The notes under the pieces were generated by a model. It made no database searches, was not told the origin of the DNA, and saw only the letters and a program-made list of their open reading frames with translations. From a virus (taxonomy: Duplodnaviria > Heunggongvirae > Uroviricota > Caudoviricetes), in the IMG/VR virus record IMGVR_UViG_2534681708_000006, positions 1 through 48,263 of that record: a stretch of DNA of 48,263 nucleotides; one strand, 5' to 3'. Position numbers and translations under genes: made by a program. Positions within the stretch are counted from its first letter, which is position 1. Each line of letters begins with the position of its first letter. Below are positions 1,478-40,835 of the stretch, one piece after another.

Positions 1478-1552
1478 TGTTAGACTGAAATTGACGCCCG
1501 ATGTTGATTATTAATAATCAGCTATGAAGTTTTAATTTGAATACAATGCAAT

Positions 1553-1741
1553 TCACGAGGACTGAAGTTTCTCGCAATTAAAATTTATCAGTTTTACTTT
1601 CTGCTCTCTGGAAACGCCTGCTTCTTTTTTACCTGAGAGCATTTTTTCGCATTCTGATTTGGTTAATTTTGTTTTTGAGTACCTTGTCCAGTTAGTAGGA
1701 GTGCCACCTTCCTTTTCAATAGTGGCAGTAATTTTATACAT
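1553..1741 (-). CDS. Small hypothetical protein (YdaC-like position)
   Basis: ORF-track frame 1553..1810; internal ATG (MYKITAT...) is preceded by GGAGGTG and overlaps the lar stop by 8 nt, so chosen as start. Confidence 0.4.
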   Translation of the reverse strand: MYKITATIEKEGGTPTNWTRYSKTKLTKSECEKMLSGKKEAGVSREQKVKLINFNCEKLQSS

Positions 1742-1928
1742 GAACACCTCCATTATTATTTCCAGTAGTTCGTTTATTCCATCTTTCGAGTGCTTCTTTT
1801 TCACTTCCACTATAGCCAGTTCGGGATTCGCATCCGTTACACTTTGCGCGGTAATATCCTGAAATGGCTTTCACCGTTACTGATGGACAACCACAAAACG
1901 GACATGGTTTGACTTTTTCATACCGCAT
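1734..1928 (-). CDS. ralR: Restriction alleviation protein, Lar family (zinc-ribbon CPFCGC...CNGC)
   Basis: 64-aa translation MRYEKVKPCPFCGC...KCNGCESRTGY with two CxxC pairs; position upstream of the recombination genes as in Rac. Start taken at second ATG of ORF 1734..1943. Confidence 0.65.
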   Translation of the reverse strand: MRYEKVKPCPFCGCPSVTVKAISGYYRAKCNGCESRTGYSGSEKEALERWNKRTTGNNNGGVHV

Positions 1929-1991
1929 TGTCTTTTCTCTCATAAAATAAAGTTTTGTTATGGCGGTGAGGCTACACCGCCATAGTAAATA

Positions 1992-3044
1992 TCAGGAGCC
2001 GATATATTCTGGTTTCATATCTGTCAGTGTCGTTTTATACGCCTCATATAATTCTCCCAGATGTGGTCGTGCAGCATTCAGCGTATTTTCCAGAGCAGTA
2101 AATTTTTGTTCTGCTTCTGGATCACCTGATGAAGGCAGGTCATTTATCATCTTCTCAATACGGGCAATAGCATTGAGACGGTGATGACGCTGAACCACTT
2201 TTCCTTTAAGTTCTGTGTAGAGAGCGCCAAGTGTATTTTTATGATCTTCCACTTCTTGGCGAAGTGCTGTTGTTTCTCCGGTGCTTTGTGCCTGCTCAAT
2301 ACGTTCACGGAAAGCACTGATCCAGTTTTCCCCGGCATCCTGCTCAATAATTGTTGTTTCACGTTCCGCACGGCAGGCGGATGTGTTTTTATGTTCCTGA
2401 ACCGGATTAATGATTTTTTCCTGTGGTTCGTCCAGTTCGTCCCGGGTGTACACTCCAAGAATCACTTCAGGGCAATAAAGGCGCGCCCAGCGTTTCAGAG
2501 CCAGATAGGCAAGCTGCTGGCGAGGATCATCGGCCCATAACGTTGAGTTACGTGTTCTGGCCTGCGCCAGAAGTAACTCCAGTACGCGTGGCTTGCTCTC
2601 TCCGCGTAGTGTTGCCTGGACGCGAACACCGATCCCGTTTTCATCGGCCAGCTTCCAGCCAGGTACACGATATTCTTTCCCCTTGTCGTTCTTCCTGATT
2701 TCAAATTTCCCGATAATTTTTTCCCACGGCCCGAACCAGTCATATTCAATACGCCCGGTTAGCGGCCCACGAGTACTGATTACGGCATTAACCAGTTGCG
2801 CTTCATATCCGAGCACACCATTCACAACGAAAGTTTTCTGAGCTACTGCGTAAGGGTTCATTTGCCACTGCATCGCCTGCATGGTGATGGCCATGCAGTC
2901 TGATGGATTTCCCCGGAGGTGTTCCGGTACAGTAGCCATGCCGGAAGCCATTACCTGGGAAAATGTCTGAATTGCAGCCAGGGACTGAGGGCTGAAAACC
3001 GCAACATTAGAGTTAATATTTTCTTGTTGAGTTAATTCGTTCAT
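1992..3044 (-). CDS. Single-strand annealing protein, RecT/Red-beta superfamily (partner of RecE-like exonuclease)
   Basis: 350 aa; segment QWQMNPYAVAQKTFVVNGVLGYEAQ resembles the Red-beta core QYGLNPWTKEIYAF..NGIVPVVGVDGW; sits directly downstream of the exonuclease gene. Confidence 0.55.
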   Translation of the reverse strand: MNELTQQENINSNVAVFSPQSLAAIQTFSQVMASGMATVPEHLRGNPSDCMAITMQAMQWQMNPYAVAQKTFVVNGVLGYEAQLVNAVISTRGPLTGRIEYDWFGPWEKIIGKFEIRKNDKGKEYRVPGWKLADENGIGVRVQATLRGESKPRVLELLLAQARTRNSTLWADDPRQQLAYLALKRWARLYCPEVILGVYTRDELDEPQEKIINPVQEHKNTSACRAERETTIIEQDAGENWISAFRERIEQAQSTGETTALRQEVEDHKNTLGALYTELKGKVVQRHHRLNAIARIEKMINDLPSSGDPEAEQKFTALENTLNAARPHLGELYEAYKTTLTDMKPEYIGS

Positions 3045-3055
3045 TGTGTCCTTCC

Positions 3056-6000
3056 TCAGATGCTCAGTGCTTCAAGACGACGAAGATCAAAGTCGTTTAA
3101 TTCGGCGGTATAACTTTCGGTAATCGGTGCTGGCCAGTTGTTTGTCTCCAGAGCTTCATTTATCTGTCGTAGCGTCCGGCGATATTCCTGTCGACCAAGT
3201 TCCAGGAGTTCCTGCGAGGCTTCCACGACGGCCACCCAGTGATAGCCAGCATCTTTGTTGACGAAGATCCAGAAAAATTTGTCCAGGTTTGCCACATCGC
3301 AATACATTGCTGCGCTGAGGTGATAATCACGCTCAATAATTTCACGGTGCAGGCGATCTTTCAGTCGTTCCTGTCGCACATAACCGAGGCTGACTGACTT
3401 CACGTCGGCGCAAATGCTTTCGTATGGCAGCCGGATTTCGATATCAGGACGGACCCTGATTTCCAGCCCGGTTTCTTCATCAAAACCGAAATAGCTGATT
3501 TCAGATTTGCGATCCGGGTGGTTGAGTAGCCTTGCTGCATCGGTATTGTTTTGCAGTGCAGCGTGAATATTTTTTGCCTGTTCATACATATCCGGACTGA
3601 TAAACGTTTTCCCGGCGTTTTCTTCTTGCTGGCGTTTTTGCCAGTCTTCCAGTGTCACCAGTTCCGGGCGAATTTTCCGTGCGATTTCGGTTAATTGCTC
3701 TTTTGTGCCACTGATGTTGTAAGGCAAAGATTTAGCACGTTCTTTTTTTGCCAGTTCTGGATCTACAGTTTCAATTTGCTCCAGAAGTTGCTCCCGTGAT
3801 CCACTGGTTTTCAACAGAGGAGGGAGGTTTGCGTTGTATTCTTTAATACAGGCTTTCATTGCTGATGCTGTGTGTTTTTCCCCCTCAGGAATACGCCGGA
3901 ATTCCTCCGGAAGCGAACCGTAAAGGATGCCCGTTTCTTCGGCCCCGGCACTTACCGACAGTGGCTGTATAAGAGTGCTGTTGTAGCTTTCGATCCACTC
4001 TTTCATCTGTTCTGGTGTCATCGGTGCTGGCAGACTGGCATTGTGTTTTTTAATGATGGCGATCAGTTCGTTAGAAGTAGTAACCACATATTCAGGAACC
4101 GGTACCGGAATGGCATACTCATCAGCGAATTTATCCGTTTCCAGAACATAGCTGTGAATAATCCGTCCACGCAGCAATGCATCACTTTCCTCGCCCGGAA
4201 TAGTTCCGGCAATGTGCCGTCCGTGGTAATACATCAGGCTGATGCGGGCATCCTTCAGCATTGTGCTGCTTATGCCGTTGGCGGAGTGATAAACCTCGTT
4301 CGGGAGGTTTTCATAGCGGCCAGGCTCGAAATATGACGGCCACATGATTTCAGTTGCTACATGAGCTGACGCTTCACCAGTTTCATCACTGCAATCGTGA
4401 TGCGGATGGTTGCCAGCGTTCTCCTTGTGCGGATGTTCAGCGCCTTCCATTTCCTCCGGATCATTTTCCTTAGCTTCAACCTGATTCTCTTCATCGAATG
4501 TTTCCTGGTATGTTGCGTCGCCCATTACCGCACCACAGTCAGGGCAGTTATCCCCGCCAGTCTGACCGCAGGCATTGCAGACTATTTCCGGTTTCTGTTG
4601 CACTACTGGCTCAGGTTGTTTCACATCCGGGCTGGTTTTTACAGTTTCTGGCGTGTTTTGTTCCGTTTCTGGCTGGTTCTGGTACACAGAGTCGCGAGTC
4701 TGGATCCCCTTTACCCATTTCGGATCGTTCGGGTCGCTAATCCCTTCAACGAACTCACCACGCGAGGCAGCCAGCAATTTGTCGGCATCGACAGGATTTT
4801 TTGATGGAATGTTTTTCCGGGCTTCATGGAGTTCTGCCCGCAGTTCCTGATATTTCGCATCAGCAGAATTTACCTGTGACTGAGCATCCAGCGGCTGCGT
4901 GTCCTGATGATGTTCAGTTGCATCCGGTTCCACTGTTTCAGCCGTTGCCTGTTCATCTGCCATTGCGCAAGATGGTTGCAGTTTTTCTTCATCATCCTGT
5001 TTTTCTTCTTCTGTTACACGCTGCGGCATCGGGGCAGAGGAACGACCGCAGGCAATATCCACGATTACCGGATCAGGGTTGGCATGATCAGTTTCAGTCA
5101 GTACTTTGTTCAGATATTCAGTGACGTGTGCGGGGATAACCTCGATCCCAATTGGTGCTTCTTTTACGGACGCAACCACGATGGCGCGGGAATAATCCAG
5201 CCCGCCAGGCATGGTGATGAATTTGTCGCGAAAAACAGAAAAGGGCGGTTTATTTTCAGCGATAATTTCCTCGACACGTTTAGCGTGTGCCGGATGAAGG
5301 TTATAAATGTCCACGTCCATTGAACGAGCCAGTACGCCAGTGGCTACGTCGCGCGCCAGTGACGTCAGATCGTGAACGAAACCTTCGCCGCGATCGGTGA
5401 GGTTCCCGCCGCCAGCATTAGCGCCGGAAGCTGTGCGCGTGATGCGTGAAACACGATTTCCTTTCATCCACTCTTTTGTCAGCAGACTGCGATCGGTGTA
5501 GTCTGCGTCCAGGCATGCTTCGAAAAAAGCAGTCATCAGCCCCAAGCTTGAATTGCCTGGATTAGGGAAAACGCTGTCAGTATCACGCACCAGTTTGTGG
5601 AGATCGCGAATTTCCAGTGGATCGAGCAGGCTGGTTTTGTGGGAAACAGCCAGGGCTGTAACAGCTGGTAGTTCCTCAGCCCGTGCAATGTGTAATGCCT
5701 GGAGTTCGTCGCGTGAAACGTGCGTTACCGGTTTTTCGCTGCCGTGTTGAGCAAGCCAGCGAATGGGAAGCTCCTGGCCAGAAATCGGGAGTAGCATATT
5801 CTCCTCAATCTCCGTCATGTCTTCGCCATTAACATTGGTATTGTCAGTGCTGGCTGGTTTGTCCTGCGCAGAGGGTGAGGGCGCGATAAATACCATTGTG
5901 ATGCCATCTTCCCCGCCTTTTTCGTAACGGTTGCAGAATTCCGTATCAAATACGCCTTCTGGCGGGAGGTCATCAACAACGGGCAAATTGACGCGAACAG

Positions 6001-6181
6001 GTTTTTTGAAGTCATCTTCATCGTATCCAGCATCGTCAATCGCAACAGCACCACGGGAGATGGCAATGGATAATTTTTTCGCTTCAGCCCAGTAAAAACC
6101 GCCTTTAATACCGAGACGTTTTCTTACTTTGTCATTTTTTGCTTCGTAATACAGTGGGTAAACTTGTTTGTCGGTGCTCAT
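3056..6181 (-). CDS. recE: RecE-like exodeoxyribonuclease VIII with divergent C-terminal PD-(D/E)xK nuclease domain
   Basis: 1041 aa; N-terminal ~600 aa match my memory of E. coli RecE ([40 protein letters not shown]...); C-terminal part differs but keeps a D...E.K nuclease pattern (RPDIEI...ADVKSV). Confidence 0.8.
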
Positions 6182-6204
6182 TGTTTTTTAACCTCAACTC
6201 ATAT

Positions 6205-6501
6205 TCAGTTTGCATAAAAGAAATGAACTGATGATGCGATGCCTGAGAGTTCTTTCTGTCGTTGATAACTGATGCCGTATTTCTTGTCAGCCTCTTCAAT
6301 ACGAGCTGCGAGTAATGCGACTTCTTTAATAGCACACACATAACAATCAAATGTTCCCAGAACGTAACCGCCATCAATAATTACCGTAACGTTTTCTTTT
6401 TGGGAAATCTGAATAAAACCATGTAATGTATTCCCACATTTGAATTCGGCGAGAGAATCGTTAATGACATTAAGTTCAATTTCACATTCAATAATGCTCA
6501 T
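6205..6501 (-). CDS. Hypothetical protein (RacC position)
   Basis: ORF 6205..6549; start set at internal ATG (MSIIECE...) preceded by GGAAACAG; no recognisable motif. Confidence 0.4.
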   Translation of the reverse strand: MSIIECEIELNVINDSLAEFKCGNTLHGFIQISQKENVTVIIDGGYVLGTFDCYVCAIKEVALLAARIEEADKKYGISYQRQKELSGIASSVHFFYAN

Positions 6502-6575
6502 TTCTGTTTCCTTTTTTAAGATTGAGTGAATCCCTGCCATTGCTGGCATAAATTCAGTTTCGAATAGTCAGTTAA

Positions 6576-6752
6576 TTAAAGTTCGTGTGCCATCTGGTCT
6601 TTTTCGGCACAAGCTTCACTGCAATATTTTCTCGGTTCGTCTTTTGATAAAGTCCCGTGCATGAAGTGAAGCATTCTTTCAATAGCTTTGCTTTCTTCAA
6701 CGTCTTTTTTGCAAAGGTGGTAAGCACATTTTATTTTCTTATCTATCACCAT
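6576..6752 (-). CDS. Small zinc-binding protein (YdaE-like), 58 aa
   Basis: Below the 60-aa cutoff of the ORF track; hand-translated as [58 protein letters not shown] with paired Cys; start overlaps the kilR stop. Confidence 0.45.
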
Positions 6753-6967
6753 GACTCTGCTTTTACAGGTAAACCATCACGACCGAGGAAGACTTTAATC
6801 ATGCGGTCAGAAATGCATGTTTTTGTAGTCAGGCTCCGAATATAAAGTTTTCGCTTTTTAATATTGTTTGCCGAGGCGATATATGTCCGACCTTCATGAA
6901 GAACATAATCGCCAGGGGTCACACACTGACGTGGTATTTCATCAGTTCCGAAGTGATGAGCAATCAT
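6746..6967 (-). CDS. kilR: KilR-like cell-division (FtsZ) inhibitor
   Basis: 73-aa product from internal ATG ([21 protein letters not shown]...) with GGAGAT RBS; recalled as Rac KilR; position between recE and the immunity region. Confidence 0.6.
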
Positions 6968-7302
6968 AATTATCTCCATTTTTACAAATGAATTTTGTCG
7001 ATGCGGTGCCTGGTGCCTCCAGGTGACGTTAACCAGTTAACAATTAACGCCGGATAATCCACCCATAACACTGATGCTTTTAACTGTGCCGCGTGCGCTT
7101 AGCCGCATTCACCGCATCACAAAATTCACTTTAAAAAGGGCAGACATCAGTCGTACTTCAAGAAAAAACTGATGCCGCCAAGACTACACACAGCAGTGTT
7201 GTTATTCACAACCGGAGGCGCACTCCCACCATTTAAATTTCACAGACAAGACCGACTCTTTATGGATACCGGAAATGCGCCTTCGTGTTGTATGCCTGTC
7301 TT

Positions 7303-7330
7303 TTTACCACTTCAGGCTCGGTGGTATACT
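7303..7330 (+). promoter_or_regulatory. Candidate sigma-70 promoter (TTTACC -N16- TATACT) for the plus-strand small gene
   Basis: Hexamers read directly about 35 nt upstream of ATG 7363; coordinates approximate. Confidence 0.35.
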
Positions 7331-7362
7331 GGAGTTCTCACACAACCAGTAAGGAATTGCTT

Positions 7363-7596
7363 ATGCCTATTCAATCTCAACACAAAAATATTGATTATCT
7401 TTCCGCCAGATTAGAGGCTACCACGCTTGTTCTTGAAGAATTTGTTAAACTTCTTACGCCAGAGCAGCGTGAAAAACTGAATCTGGCAATTGCCGGGCGT
7501 TGTCCGGGCGTGAAAAATGCGTCTCTCAGGAATAGAAATTCTCCCGCATATCAATTATTACAGTTCATCAATGATGGCGTCCGCAGCAGCGATTAA
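7363..7596 (+). CDS. Small hypothetical protein (77 aa), convergent with the early-left operon
   Basis: ATG with AGGA RBS inside ORF 7285..7596; occupies the slot where Rac/lambda carry sieB; soluble, no TM segment, so not SieB itself. Confidence 0.4.
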   Translation: MPIQSQHKNIDYLSARLEATTLVLEEFVKLLTPEQREKLNLAIAGRCPGVKNASLRNRNSPAYQLLQFINDGVRSSD

Positions 7597-7863
7597 TTTT
7601 TCTAATGCCTCTTCGACATGATAATTGTATGGTTGTAGTGACCTGACATCTGTAATTGCATTAGCCAGGATTCGTGCCATTACGGCTGGTGCGATTTTTT
7701 TTGCTACTGATACCCGGCTGGCGAGTTCCAGTGCGAGACGTGCCTGCCTTGGAGTTAGCTCTCTCTCCTTTGCCATTGTTGATGCTTGTACAGACAATTC
7801 ATACGCCAGGCAAAATACAGCATTATTCGTTTCTGGCGGGTCAATACTCTGAGTAAATGTCAT
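7558..7863 (-). CDS. Hypothetical protein, first gene of the leftward early operon
   Basis: 101 aa; strong RBS AAGGGGAGAG; immediately downstream of a TTGACT-N17-TAATAT promoter. Confidence 0.5.
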   Translation of the reverse strand: MTFTQSIDPPETNNAVFCLAYELSVQASTMAKERELTPRQARLALELASRVSVAKKIAPAVMARILANAITDVRSLQPYNYHVEEALEKLIAAADAIIDEL

Positions 7864-7930
7864 CTTATCTCTCCCCTTAACGCCGGGTGGCGGAACTAAA
7901 ACCTACAGCGCCGTGCTGTTCTTGATAGAA

Positions 7931-7959
7931 ATATTAGTAATACGGATATTTCAAGTCAA
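7931..7959 (-). promoter_or_regulatory. pL-like early-left promoter (TTGACT -N17- TAATAT on minus strand)
   Basis: Near-consensus -35/-10 with 17-nt spacer upstream of gene 7558..7863. Confidence 0.5.
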
Positions 7960-8056
7960 CAGTGTGACGTATGATGTTTTTGATTTGGTAACTAAGTAAA
8001 TGTTTTTTCAAGGGAAAAATATTAGTTATACAGCTGATTTGCAGAAGTTATGGCAC

Positions 8057-8087
8057 AAAAAAACCGACTAAGACGTCGGTTTTTTTT
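8057..8087. terminator. Bidirectional intrinsic terminator (A7 - CCGAC/GTCGG hairpin - T8)
   Basis: Short GC stem flanked by an A-run and a T-run, just downstream of the racR stop. Confidence 0.5.
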
Positions 8088-8113
8088 GTTGTGGATTGGG
8101 TAGTGAGCGGTGG

Positions 8114-8575
8114 CTACTGGTTGCGTTTCTTTAGTGCCAGCATGTTCTCGAAGGCTTCCTCGTAGAGCTTGTTTAGTCCACGTAGCTGGTTAAGGAGTTT
8201 GGCTTTTTCTGACGCAGGTAGAATCTCGAAGAGGTTAAGTAACTCTGCCTGTTCTTCATTGACCAGCCTCCATCCTTTGCCTGAAAAGCTATCATCATAA
8301 GTATCTGATGATCTTACATAATTCATTAAGTCTTTAAGGTCTTCTCGAATGTCCTCTGGTTTTACCTTTAACAGAGCCGCAAATTTTAGCGCAGCGTCGG
8401 TATTTACCGGTATCTTGCCGTTCAGATACTGACTAACGGTGCCTTGAGATTCGAATCCCAACAACTCAGCCGCCAGCTCTTGAGTCAGCTTCAGCTCTTT
8501 TTTTCTTGCATTCCATGCGGCTTTTAAATTCTTGCTCGCTTCTGGAGTTGCAATCACGTCACGTGTTTTTTTCAT
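8114..8575 (-). CDS. racR: RacR-like prophage repressor (N-terminal HTH)
   Basis: 153 aa; HTH segment LTQELAAELLGFESQGTVSQYLNGK; divergent from a Cro-like gene. Confidence 0.8.
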   Translation of the reverse strand: MKKTRDVIATPEASKNLKAAWNARKKELKLTQELAAELLGFESQGTVSQYLNGKIPVNTDAALKFAALLKVKPEDIREDLKDLMNYVRSSDTYDDSFSGKGWRLVNEEQAELLNLFEILPASEKAKLLNQLRGLNKLYEEAFENMLALKKRNQ

Positions 8576-8581
8576 ACATAG

Positions 8582-8609
8582 AGTTTATTTGTTTTACCAA
8601 TATTATCAA
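8582..8609 (-). promoter_or_regulatory. pRM-like promoter for racR (TTGATA -N16- TAAACT), predicts leaderless racR mRNA
   Basis: -10 hexamer ends 6 nt before the racR ATG and no SD is present. Confidence 0.4.
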
Positions 8610-8632
8610 AGATAGTCTGACTATTGATCTTT
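8608..8632. promoter_or_regulatory. Candidate operator: palindrome ATAGTCTGACTAT within a longer imperfect inverted repeat (AAAGAT...ATCTTT)
   Basis: 13-bp perfect palindrome between/overlapping the divergent -35 elements. Confidence 0.4.
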
Positions 8633-8652
8633 AAAATTAGTGGGGCTAATAT
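8624..8652 (+). promoter_or_regulatory. pR-like promoter for ydaS/ydaT (TTGATC -N17- TAATAT)
   Basis: Read directly; about 30 nt upstream of the ydaS ATG. Confidence 0.5.
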
Positions 8653-8682
8653 TTACTCGAGACATAACGTAGAAGGTTGGCT

Positions 8683-8958
8683 ATGAACTTAAGAGACTAT
8701 TTAAAAGAGAAAAATATCACCCAGCTACAGTTTGGGAAGCTAACGGGTTTATCTCAGGTGCATGTAAGTCGAGTGCTGGGGGGCTATGAAAGATTCAGCC
8801 CTGAAAAAGCATTACGTGTTGCTGAAGTAACGAATTTCGAGGTTACACCTCATGAACTCCGGCCTGATATCTACCCGAATCCGACCGATGGTTTACCTGT
8901 TGGATGTAAGGCTAACACACAAAATGCACAGGAGTTGATTCATGAAAATCAGGCATGA
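8683..8958 (+). CDS. ydaS: Cro-like HTH protein (YdaS family)
   Basis: 91 aa from ATG with AAGG RBS; HTH ITQLQFGKLTGLSQVHVSRVL; divergent from repressor. Confidence 0.7.
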   Translation: MNLRDYLKEKNITQLQFGKLTGLSQVHVSRVLGGYERFSPEKALRVAEVTNFEVTPHELRPDIYPNPTDGLPVGCKANTQNAQELIHENQA

Positions 8959-14965: not shown

Positions 14966-15252
14966 TAACACTTCCTTAATTTTTCCTTAACAATTTAGGG
15001 TGCTAAACTTCTTTGCGCAGTTTACACAAAAAAATAGTGCGTACGCAAAAACTATCTAACATGATGAGCTTTAACCGGGAAATTTGTATATGTTGTGAGC
15101 ATAAAGTTGGCTGAGAAATCTAAAACGGGTCGAATGACTACGGGTGCTTGAGGCTATCTGCCTCGGGCATGCCACCAAAGGCCGATAGAGAAAAGTCCCA
15201 GTTAACATTACGCGTCCTGCAAGACGCTTAACATTAATCTGAGGATATATCT

Positions 15253-15312
15253 ATGACTTGCACCTATAGGTTACCTCTTACGTGCCGAAAGGCAAGGAGA
15301 AGCGGGCTATGA
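15253..15312 (+). CDS. mok-like leader ORF (19 codons) translationally coupled to hok
   Basis: ATG with GAGGA RBS; its TGA stop overlaps the hok ATG (ATGA). Confidence 0.3.
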   Translation: MTCTYRLPLTCRKARRSGL

Positions 15313-15464
15313 AGCAGCAAAAGGCGATGTTACTCGCTCTAATCGTCATCTGTTTAACCGTCATAGTGACGGTACTGGTAACGTGGAAAGACCTCTGCGA
15401 GGTGCGAATCCGAACCGGTCAGACGGAGATCGCTGTCTTCACAGTTTACGAACCTGAGGAGTAA
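15309..15464 (+). CDS. hok: Hok/Gef-family type I toxin (small membrane host-killing peptide)
   Basis: 51-aa translation MKQQKAMLLALIVICLTVIVTVLVTWKDLCEVRIRTGQTEIAVFTVYEPEE, near-identical to my recollection of HokD/HokC; AAGGAG RBS. Confidence 0.85.
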   Translation: MKQQKAMLLALIVICLTVIVTVLVTWKDLCEVRIRTGQTEIAVFTVYEPEE

Positions 15465-40498: not shown

Positions 40499-40835
40499 AG
40501 TAACCTCTTTTGGCTTTTTTCGAATTGCCACTAACGTAGTGGCGCCGGGAGGTTCGAAACGGCCCAAAAGATACCGCGGACTTATTCCCCTTTCGGGTGT
40601 TGTATTCGTCGCCCTCCCGACATTGATCGGGGTTGTGATCGCACATATTGCCATCACAAAAAAAAGGCATAAAAAAACCAACACATTGTAGGGTGCTGGG
40701 TAATCAGCTTTTGGGGGAGGTTTCGACGCCTCATGCGTCCAATCATACTCAACTGGGCGCGGTTGTAAAGTATGAACTTGAACAGACATTAAGAATGGGT
40801 AAAATTTGTTCTCCTGTTTTATAAGGAGATTAAGG

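Follow-up and report, generated by a model that had tools for sequence, protein, structure and literature searches.

Described relatives of the locus reported here include the recombination genes recE and recT of the Rac prophage of Escherichia coli K-12 and those encoding Exo and Redβ of phage lambda. K-12 Rac is a cryptic prophage in which recET stays silent without activation (sbcA). The nuclease domain of RecE comprises residues 564-866 and can alone replace the full protein genetically (PMC11611040). In lambda, the carboxy-terminal domain (CTD) of Redβ binds Exo, which sets a precedent for docking by an annealase CTD, and according to a 2023 review it is an open question if other annealases also bind their partner exonuclease through a CTD (PMC11611040). 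The recET orthologs of the Salmonella prophages Gifsy-1 and Gifsy-2 suppress the recombination defects of recB mutants once they are derepressed (PMC3121763). Here, a recE gene and the adjoining annealase gene are described from IMG/VR virus record IMGVR_UViG_2534681708_000006, of which positions 1 to 48,263 were analysed (48,263 nucleotides; this whole stretch is called the window). The two genes very probably encode a functional two-component recombinase of the RecET/SynExo kind, carried by a Rac-family prophage in which the nuclease-annealase block has been replaced by one of Gifsy-type origin.

Comparison with K-12 Rac by blastn identifies the window as Rac-family prophage DNA. Positions 1-1949 are 96.3% identical to K-12 Rac and carry the integrase, the excisionase, rcbA, and ralR with the RalA small RNA (sRNA), while positions 6498-7325 (the ydaE/kilR region) are 90.5% identical. 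The recE and annealase genes are adjacent on the minus strand within the leftward early operon, and the gene order int-xis-rcbA-ralR-SSAP-recE (SSAP, single-strand annealing protein) is that of K-12 Rac. Both open reading frames (ORFs) are as the first-pass annotation of the sequence had reported them, at 1041 and 350 amino acids (aa). The module comprises the following features.

3056-6181, minus strand: chimeric recE gene, 1041 aa (ORF; stop codon at 3056-3058)
5844-6181, minus strand: divergent 5' patch of recE, aa 1-112, with no blastn match to K-12 recE
4372-5843, minus strand: Rac/K-12-type RecE N-region, aa 113-603, with 92.3% DNA identity to K-12 recE
3056-4371, minus strand: type-B (Gifsy/mEp237-type) nuclease domain, aa 604-1041, with no K-12 DNA match by blastn
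3398-4156, minus strand: span with the catalytic residues, from a MAFFT alignment of five nuclease domains
4154-4156, 3443-3445, 3404-3406 and 3398-3400, minus strand: predicted catalytic residues H676, D913, D926 and K928, respectively
3617-4039, minus strand: helical insertion of ~140 aa, aa 715-855, from the MAFFT alignment and an AlphaFold2 (AF2) model
3045-3055, minus strand: 11-nt spacer, GGAAGGACACA, Shine-Dalgarno-like, separating the recE stop from the annealase ATG, read from the sequence
1992-3044, minus strand: annealase (SSAP) gene, 350 aa (ORF; Pfam PF03837, E 3.5e-43; PHROG 561, E 4e-145)
2376-3044, minus strand: predicted N-terminal DNA-annealing core of the annealase, aa 1-223
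1995-2375, minus strand: helical CTD of the annealase, aa 224-350 (model all-helical, pLDDT ~86)
1950-1991, minus strand: left end of the replaced block, with a hairpin; K-12 homology stops at 1949 (blastn)
1960-1983, minus strand: hairpin ATGGCGGTG-TAGCCT-CACCGCCAT with a perfect 9-bp stem, just 3' of the annealase stop

The similarity to K-12 Rac is interrupted by a single block. Positions 1950-4371 (~2.4 kb) have no blastn match to K-12 Rac and are flanked by the matching stretches 1-1949 and 4372-5843. It contains the coding sequence for the RecE nuclease domain (aa 604-1041) and for the entire annealase; its K-12 counterpart, of 1683 bp, consists of recT and the recE nuclease domain. The swapped nuclease domain and its partner annealase thus form one contiguous block, and the module is genuinely mosaic, as the first-pass annotation had proposed and as both blastn and BLASTP comparisons bear out. 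An assembly chimera was considered and rejected, the arrangement being common to 159 independent complete E. coli genomes at 95-99.5% identity.

The upstream joint is in frame and falls at K-12 RecE residue 585, the boundary between the N-region and the nuclease domain. It is located there because similarity collapses directly after CSDETGE, the final peptide common to both RecE proteins (aa 597-603 in the window, aa 579-585 in K-12). Since the nuclease domain of RecE on its own can stand in for the whole protein in genetic terms (PMC11611040), this joint falls on an established functional boundary. The opposite end of the block lies 42 nt past the annealase stop codon, and the hairpin at 1960-1983 sits within these 42 nt of non-K-12 sequence, with no T-run after it.

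Upstream of the joint, RecE is largely of the Rac/K-12 type. It had been claimed that the first ~600 residues follow RecE closely, which holds for aa 118-603 (~485 residues, 91.6% identity) and fails for aa 1-117, where identity to K-12 RecE is 21% (aa 1-57) and 35% (aa 58-117). The Pfam Exonuc_VIII match covers aa 52-189. Among IMG/VR relatives, the 5' patch (aa 1-112) has at least two to three alternative alleles, and N-region identity varies between 62% and 96% across loci with nuclease domains that match the window's at 96-99%. Comparison of the window with loci L005-L046 resolves the N-region into a patchwork with segments of roughly aa 1-100 or 1-220, 250-460 and 490-610. The chimera in the window is therefore one among many combinations, and crossovers recur in the zone immediately preceding the nuclease domain.

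From aa 604 on, similarity to the K-12 nuclease domain falls to 29% over 133 aa (BLASTP), in agreement with the earlier remark that the C-terminal catalytic region differs from that of RecE. Only aa 118-603 of the protein are close to K-12 RecE; collinear identity over the full length of RecE and RecT was looked for by alignment and was not found. The replacement domain is instead 50-52% identical over ~428 aa to the exonucleases of mEp237, HK225, Gifsy-1/2 and pAEv1818. The whole 1041-aa protein matches the NCBIfam exodeoxyribonuclease VIII equivalog NF007259 over aa 1-1040 at 1554 bits (cut-off 1269), a score to which the N-region contributes a large share. Within the nuclease domain, aa 854-1019 match Pfam DUF3799/PDDEXK (4e-13), and the sole sequence match in the Protein Data Bank (PDB) is RecE 3h4r (phmmer, E 1e-5). 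The same structure is the best Foldseek match of the AF2 model of the domain (mean pLDDT 68), with E 2e-6 and a probability of 1.00. By sequence and model, the replacement nuclease thus remains a RecE-family PD-(D/E)XK nuclease with the RecE fold.

In the MAFFT alignment, H676, D913, D926 and K928 align with K-12 RecE H652, D748, D759 and K761, which we take to be the active site described for 3h4r. The catalytic motif is accordingly H...D...D-x-K, and the D...E.K pattern noted in the first-pass annotation must be corrected to D..D.K. The window module thereby shares with K-12 RecE/RecT its two-component logic, its nuclease fold and its H/D/D/K residues. It differs in two additions to the nuclease domain, namely the ~140-aa insertion, absent from K-12 RecE and from the 273-aa TL-2011b exonuclease in the alignment, and a conserved C-terminal tail, which likewise sets the type-B domain apart from these two proteins. 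The crystallised K-12 fragment, 3h4r, comprises RecE 606-866. The insertion is all-helical in the model (pLDDT 80-90) and contains four to five short repeats resembling HeH/SAP DNA-binding motifs. Pfam matches to such motifs in the insertion stay below threshold (SAP_new25, E 0.076; Ish1, E 0.11), and a role of the repeats as HeH/SAP DNA-binding elements is speculative.

The combination of domains is known from other phages. The same nuclease and annealase types are adjacent in Gifsy-1, Gifsy-2, the coliphages mEp237 and HK225, the Salmonella phage SPN3UB, FSL SP-016, PHB10 and several Klebsiella prophages, and those of Gifsy-1/2, mEp237, HK225, SPN3UB and Klebsiella share the insertion, the tail and the gene spacing. 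The annealase is 48-53% identical to the Gifsy/mEp237-type annealases over its full length, core and CTD included. The window locus is therefore of the Gifsy/mEp237 RecET type, in that a type-B nuclease with insertion and C-terminal tail directly precedes an SSAP with the matching CTD. Its N-region, of the Rac/K-12 type, sets it apart from mEp237, whose RecE N-region is only ~29% identical.

Near-identical copies of the window cassette (95-99.5% DNA identity, at least 80% coverage) occur in 159 of 5426 complete E. coli genomes (~3%), for example in O145:H28 strains; the K-12 cassette occurs in 1728 of the 5426. Essentially the same allele is found in Escherichia phage Rac-SA53 (KU052037), in PP818812 and in these 159 genomes, with nuclease proteins 97.5-97.7% identical. 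PGAP labels the copies recE (exodeoxyribonuclease VIII) and 'RecT family recombinase'. Purifying selection on both genes is strong, dN/dS (the ratio of nonsynonymous to synonymous divergence) lying at 0.06-0.10 with dS reaching ~1.5; the ratio is 0.06-0.08 for the type-B nuclease domain and 0.06-0.10 for the annealase. As a gene pair, the module is thus a real, ordinary and already catalogued variant that adds little to what is known.

A second annealase allele, of 367 aa, also occurs in this group. It is 57-59% identical to the window annealase in the core and 76-79% in the CTD, adjoins nuclease domains 97-98% identical to the window's, and has a start codon that overlaps the recE stop, with no 11-nt gap. 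It is carried by L012, L015, L017, L018, L020, L028, L030, L032, L036, L037, L045 and L046, and by KU052037 (Rac-SA53). Since it lies beside a near-identical nuclease, exchange also takes place between the two genes, with the CTD type kept. A separate peculiarity concerns PP818812.1, deposited as 'Actinobacillus phage vB_Apl-pPE4', which covers 48% of the first 25 kb of the window (compared over 1504-25000) at 93.8% DNA identity. The RecT protein of this record is 99.4% identical to that of the E. coli Rac-like prophage in the window and the RecE-domain protein 97.7%, and the host assignment looks doubtful.

The family of the annealase was examined at several levels. It matches Pfam PF03837 at 148 bits (cut-off 24) over model positions 2-190 of 198. 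With the same model, K-12 RecT scores 189 bits and lambda Bet 116 bits. Because the model takes RecT and Bet alike, the annotation 'RecT family' stands for the RecT/Redβ superfamily; the 855 member sequences of the annealase's 90% identity cluster are named 'RecT family recombinase'. Neither NCBIfam RecT model (TIGR00616, NF007351) matched the annealase even at E<=10, with K-12 RecT reaching 416 and 465 bits and the pAEv1818 SSAP 98 and 124 bits as controls. BLASTP against K-12 RecT was not significant (E 0.36). The partner is thus not a canonical RecT, as had been noted at first sight.

The companion claim, that the annealase is Red-beta-like, survives only as a tendency. The Bet model TIGR01913 gave no match to the annealase even at E<=10 (controls: lambda Bet 170 bits, and even K-12 RecT 23.5 bits). 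BLASTP against lambda Bet aligned only a 34-aa stretch at the end of the core, with the pattern W..P...L..A (E 0.02). With a 28-sequence annealase profile, hhalign returned E 0.0055 for Bet and 0.22-0.65 for RecT-type sequences, with 0.005 for RecT-type against Bet; these are weak comparisons of thin profiles, the relatives retrieved for K-12 RecT all being 99-100% identical copies. Weak secondary PHROG matches, 10056 and 4171, are common to Bet and not to RecT. Redβ (7ujl) is the top Foldseek match of the annealase model at an insignificant E of 0.14 and the only solved annealase that the model resembles; the PDB yielded nothing relevant when searched with the annealase by sequence or by profile. 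Each of these signals favouring Redβ over RecT is insignificant alone and all are consistent, weakly hinting that the annealase lies nearer Redβ. Judged from its sequence, the protein is best placed as a third subfamily of the RecT/Redβ superfamily.

Lambda Exo/Redβ, for which a Redβ N-terminal domain (NTD; 7ujl) and a Redβ CTD-Exo complex (6m9k) have been solved, shares with the window module the two-component logic and the Pfam superfamily of the annealase. It differs in its exonuclease, which is Exo-type in lambda and RecE-type in the window, and the window annealase CTD has no detectable similarity to the Redβ CTD. Compared with K-12 RecT, whose tail is ~35-45 aa long, the annealase has a helical CTD of 127 aa.

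This CTD follows the nuclease type. In a survey of 80 IMG/VR loci chosen by nuclease domain alone, an SSAP gene lay directly downstream in every non-truncated locus, and a window-type CTD was encoded downstream of the nuclease in 77 of the 80; of the other three, L075 gave no detectable CTD match and two are truncated contigs. Supporting this, the CTD was found in 21 records of a phage collection, 20 of which are exactly the 20 records with a nuclease at least 50% identical; the remaining one is a partial record that ends within the annealase gene. The window-type core, by comparison, is present in 82 records of the collection.

Cores and CTDs also occur in other combinations. In TL-2011b and 80/80 of its IMG/VR relatives, the nuclease is K-12-type (in TL-2011b, 49% identical to RecE 595-862), and the annealase has a window-type core (48%) and an unrelated CTD. 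Aeromonas phage pAEv1818, loci L050-L052 and L054, and representative protein P0243 combine a type-B nuclease with a RecT-type core and a window-type CTD. In pAEv1818 and these four loci the nuclease is 50-69% identical to the window's; the core of the group is 31-33% identical to K-12 RecT and passes TIGR00616, and its CTD shows 36-51% identity to that of the window (shuffle z = 22.5). A further combination, a PHROG-3657 core with a window-type CTD, occupies the annealase position in locus L065, so that at least three kinds of annealing core (window-type, canonical RecT-type and PHROG-3657-type) are seen with this CTD. The L065 protein (5302-6546 of the locus, from IMG/VR UViG_3300011855_000048) has 414 aa, and its gene immediately follows that of a type-B RecE. 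The first 280 aa fall into PHROG 3657 and have no Pfam match, the last ~130 aa are the window-type CTD, and the PHROG 3657 part may represent an annealing core of a kind so far unrecognised.

A search of the CTD against 1.84 billion representative proteins gave 50 matches at E<=0.001. Among the matches listed, the alignment reaches the C-terminus of the protein or ends within ~60 residues of it, and the intact full-length matches examined are annealases. Long proteins with the CTD (456-756 aa) were considered as new architectures and rejected, being deletion fusions of recE and the SSAP gene. In four of them (P0248, P0254, P0256 and P0260), pieces of RecE (N-region and/or nuclease) are in frame with the last ~40-90 core residues and the CTD, and they appear from their sequences to be recE-annealase deletion fusions in degraded prophages.

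The CTD type tracks the nuclease type across hosts, as between the Aeromonas phage and E. coli phages, and does not track the host, which favours docking on the exonuclease over binding of the host SSB protein as the constraint. By this pattern and by analogy with Redβ, the docking site of the annealase CTD (aa 224-350) is most likely the type-B nuclease domain. There is an even chance, in our estimate, that the CTD and the type-B nuclease act more generally as a portable 'plug and socket', a pair that phages keep while exchanging the annealing core and the RecE N-region freely. The domain swap is in any case a clean natural experiment that points to the parts setting exonuclease-annealase specificity in RecET, and the CTD-nuclease pattern is useful for the design of recombineering tools. 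If the plug and socket were true, comparative genomics would answer the CTD question for the RecE family and supply a design rule for chimeric recombineering pairs.

Several points weigh against this picture. The evidence for docking is the co-occurrence of CTD and nuclease in sequenced loci, many of which are closely related, and the independent events are few (about three core kinds, and L075 as the one exception). Tight linkage of two genes 11 nt apart could, without any interaction, explain some of the co-inheritance; the CTD is encoded at the end of the annealase gene distal to recE. RecT and the TL-2011b SSAP, both partners of K-12-type nucleases, have no detectable CTD in common (z -0.8), and the CTD rule is therefore shown for only one type of nuclease. 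Confidence in the structure models is no more than moderate (mean pLDDT 68-69).

In the proposed course of events, the ~2.4-kb block 1950-4371 would have taken the place of a K-12-type block of recT and the recE nuclease domain. The product is the chimeric 1041-aa RecE, with a Rac-type N-region fused to a Gifsy-type nuclease. Its nuclease domain, presumably a 5'->3' exonuclease on double-stranded DNA, would resect the 5' strand at a double-strand end, and the annealase would be loaded on the emerging 3' single strand and then anneal it to a complementary strand. Docking of the CTD on the type-B nuclease domain would account for the joint inheritance of the two.

Other explanations of the locus fare less well than a functional recombinase with a replaced block. 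The annealase could be read as a Redβ-family protein newly paired with a RecE-family exonuclease, giving a cross-family mosaic that is unusual and possibly mismatched. This is unlikely, given that the Bet model failed, that no Redβ signal reaches significance and that the model of the annealase NTD is of modest confidence. Nor is the pairing new, since the two genes adjoin in Gifsy-1/2, mEp237, HK225, SPN3UB and Klebsiella phages, and the strong purifying selection on both genes argues against a mismatch.

The same selection bears on whether the chimeric recE is an accident in a decaying prophage remnant whose genes have gone out of use. The cryptic state of K-12 Rac and its silent recET lend this some plausibility, as do the in-frame recE-SSAP deletion fusions in the databases. 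However, both ORFs are intact with conserved catalytic residues, dN/dS stays at 0.06-0.10 even at dS ~1.5 (on which ground a pseudogene was rejected), and the allele is found conserved across 159 complete genomes. In addition, the first 25 kb of the window have their best phage match in the Rac-SA53 record (61% coverage, 95.5% identity), and decay is accordingly a very improbable account. We give almost no credence to the idea that the 350-aa protein is a toxin rather than a recombinase. It stems from the label 'enterohemolysin' on relatives in NCBI and UniRef (P0015, P0023, P0033, P0063 and P0064; H1; SPN9TCW), and is contradicted by the Pfam RecT/Redβ core of the protein and by the position of its gene, which in related loci always adjoins an exonuclease gene.

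The arrangement of the two genes offers further detail. They are 11 nt apart in the window, as in most related loci, in contrast to the 8-nt overlap of recE and recT in K-12, and the spacer GGAAGGACACA looks like a ribosome-binding site. A promoter and terminator scan of window positions 1500-8800 gave counts no higher than expected by chance.

Three RNA elements were also recognised in the window. RalA, the sRNA antitoxin of the RalR toxin, lies at 1557-1735 on the plus strand (Rfam RF02694, 219 bits), antisense to small ORFs just downstream of the annealase gene, an arrangement as in K-12 Rac. A sok antitoxin RNA at 15142-15314 on the plus strand (RF01794, 91.5 bits) implies a hok/sok-type toxin-antitoxin locus within the prophage. 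In the prophage late region, positions 40536-40621 on the minus strand match the Rfam family sRNA-Xcc1 (RF02221) at 72.5 bits, against a gathering score of 53.

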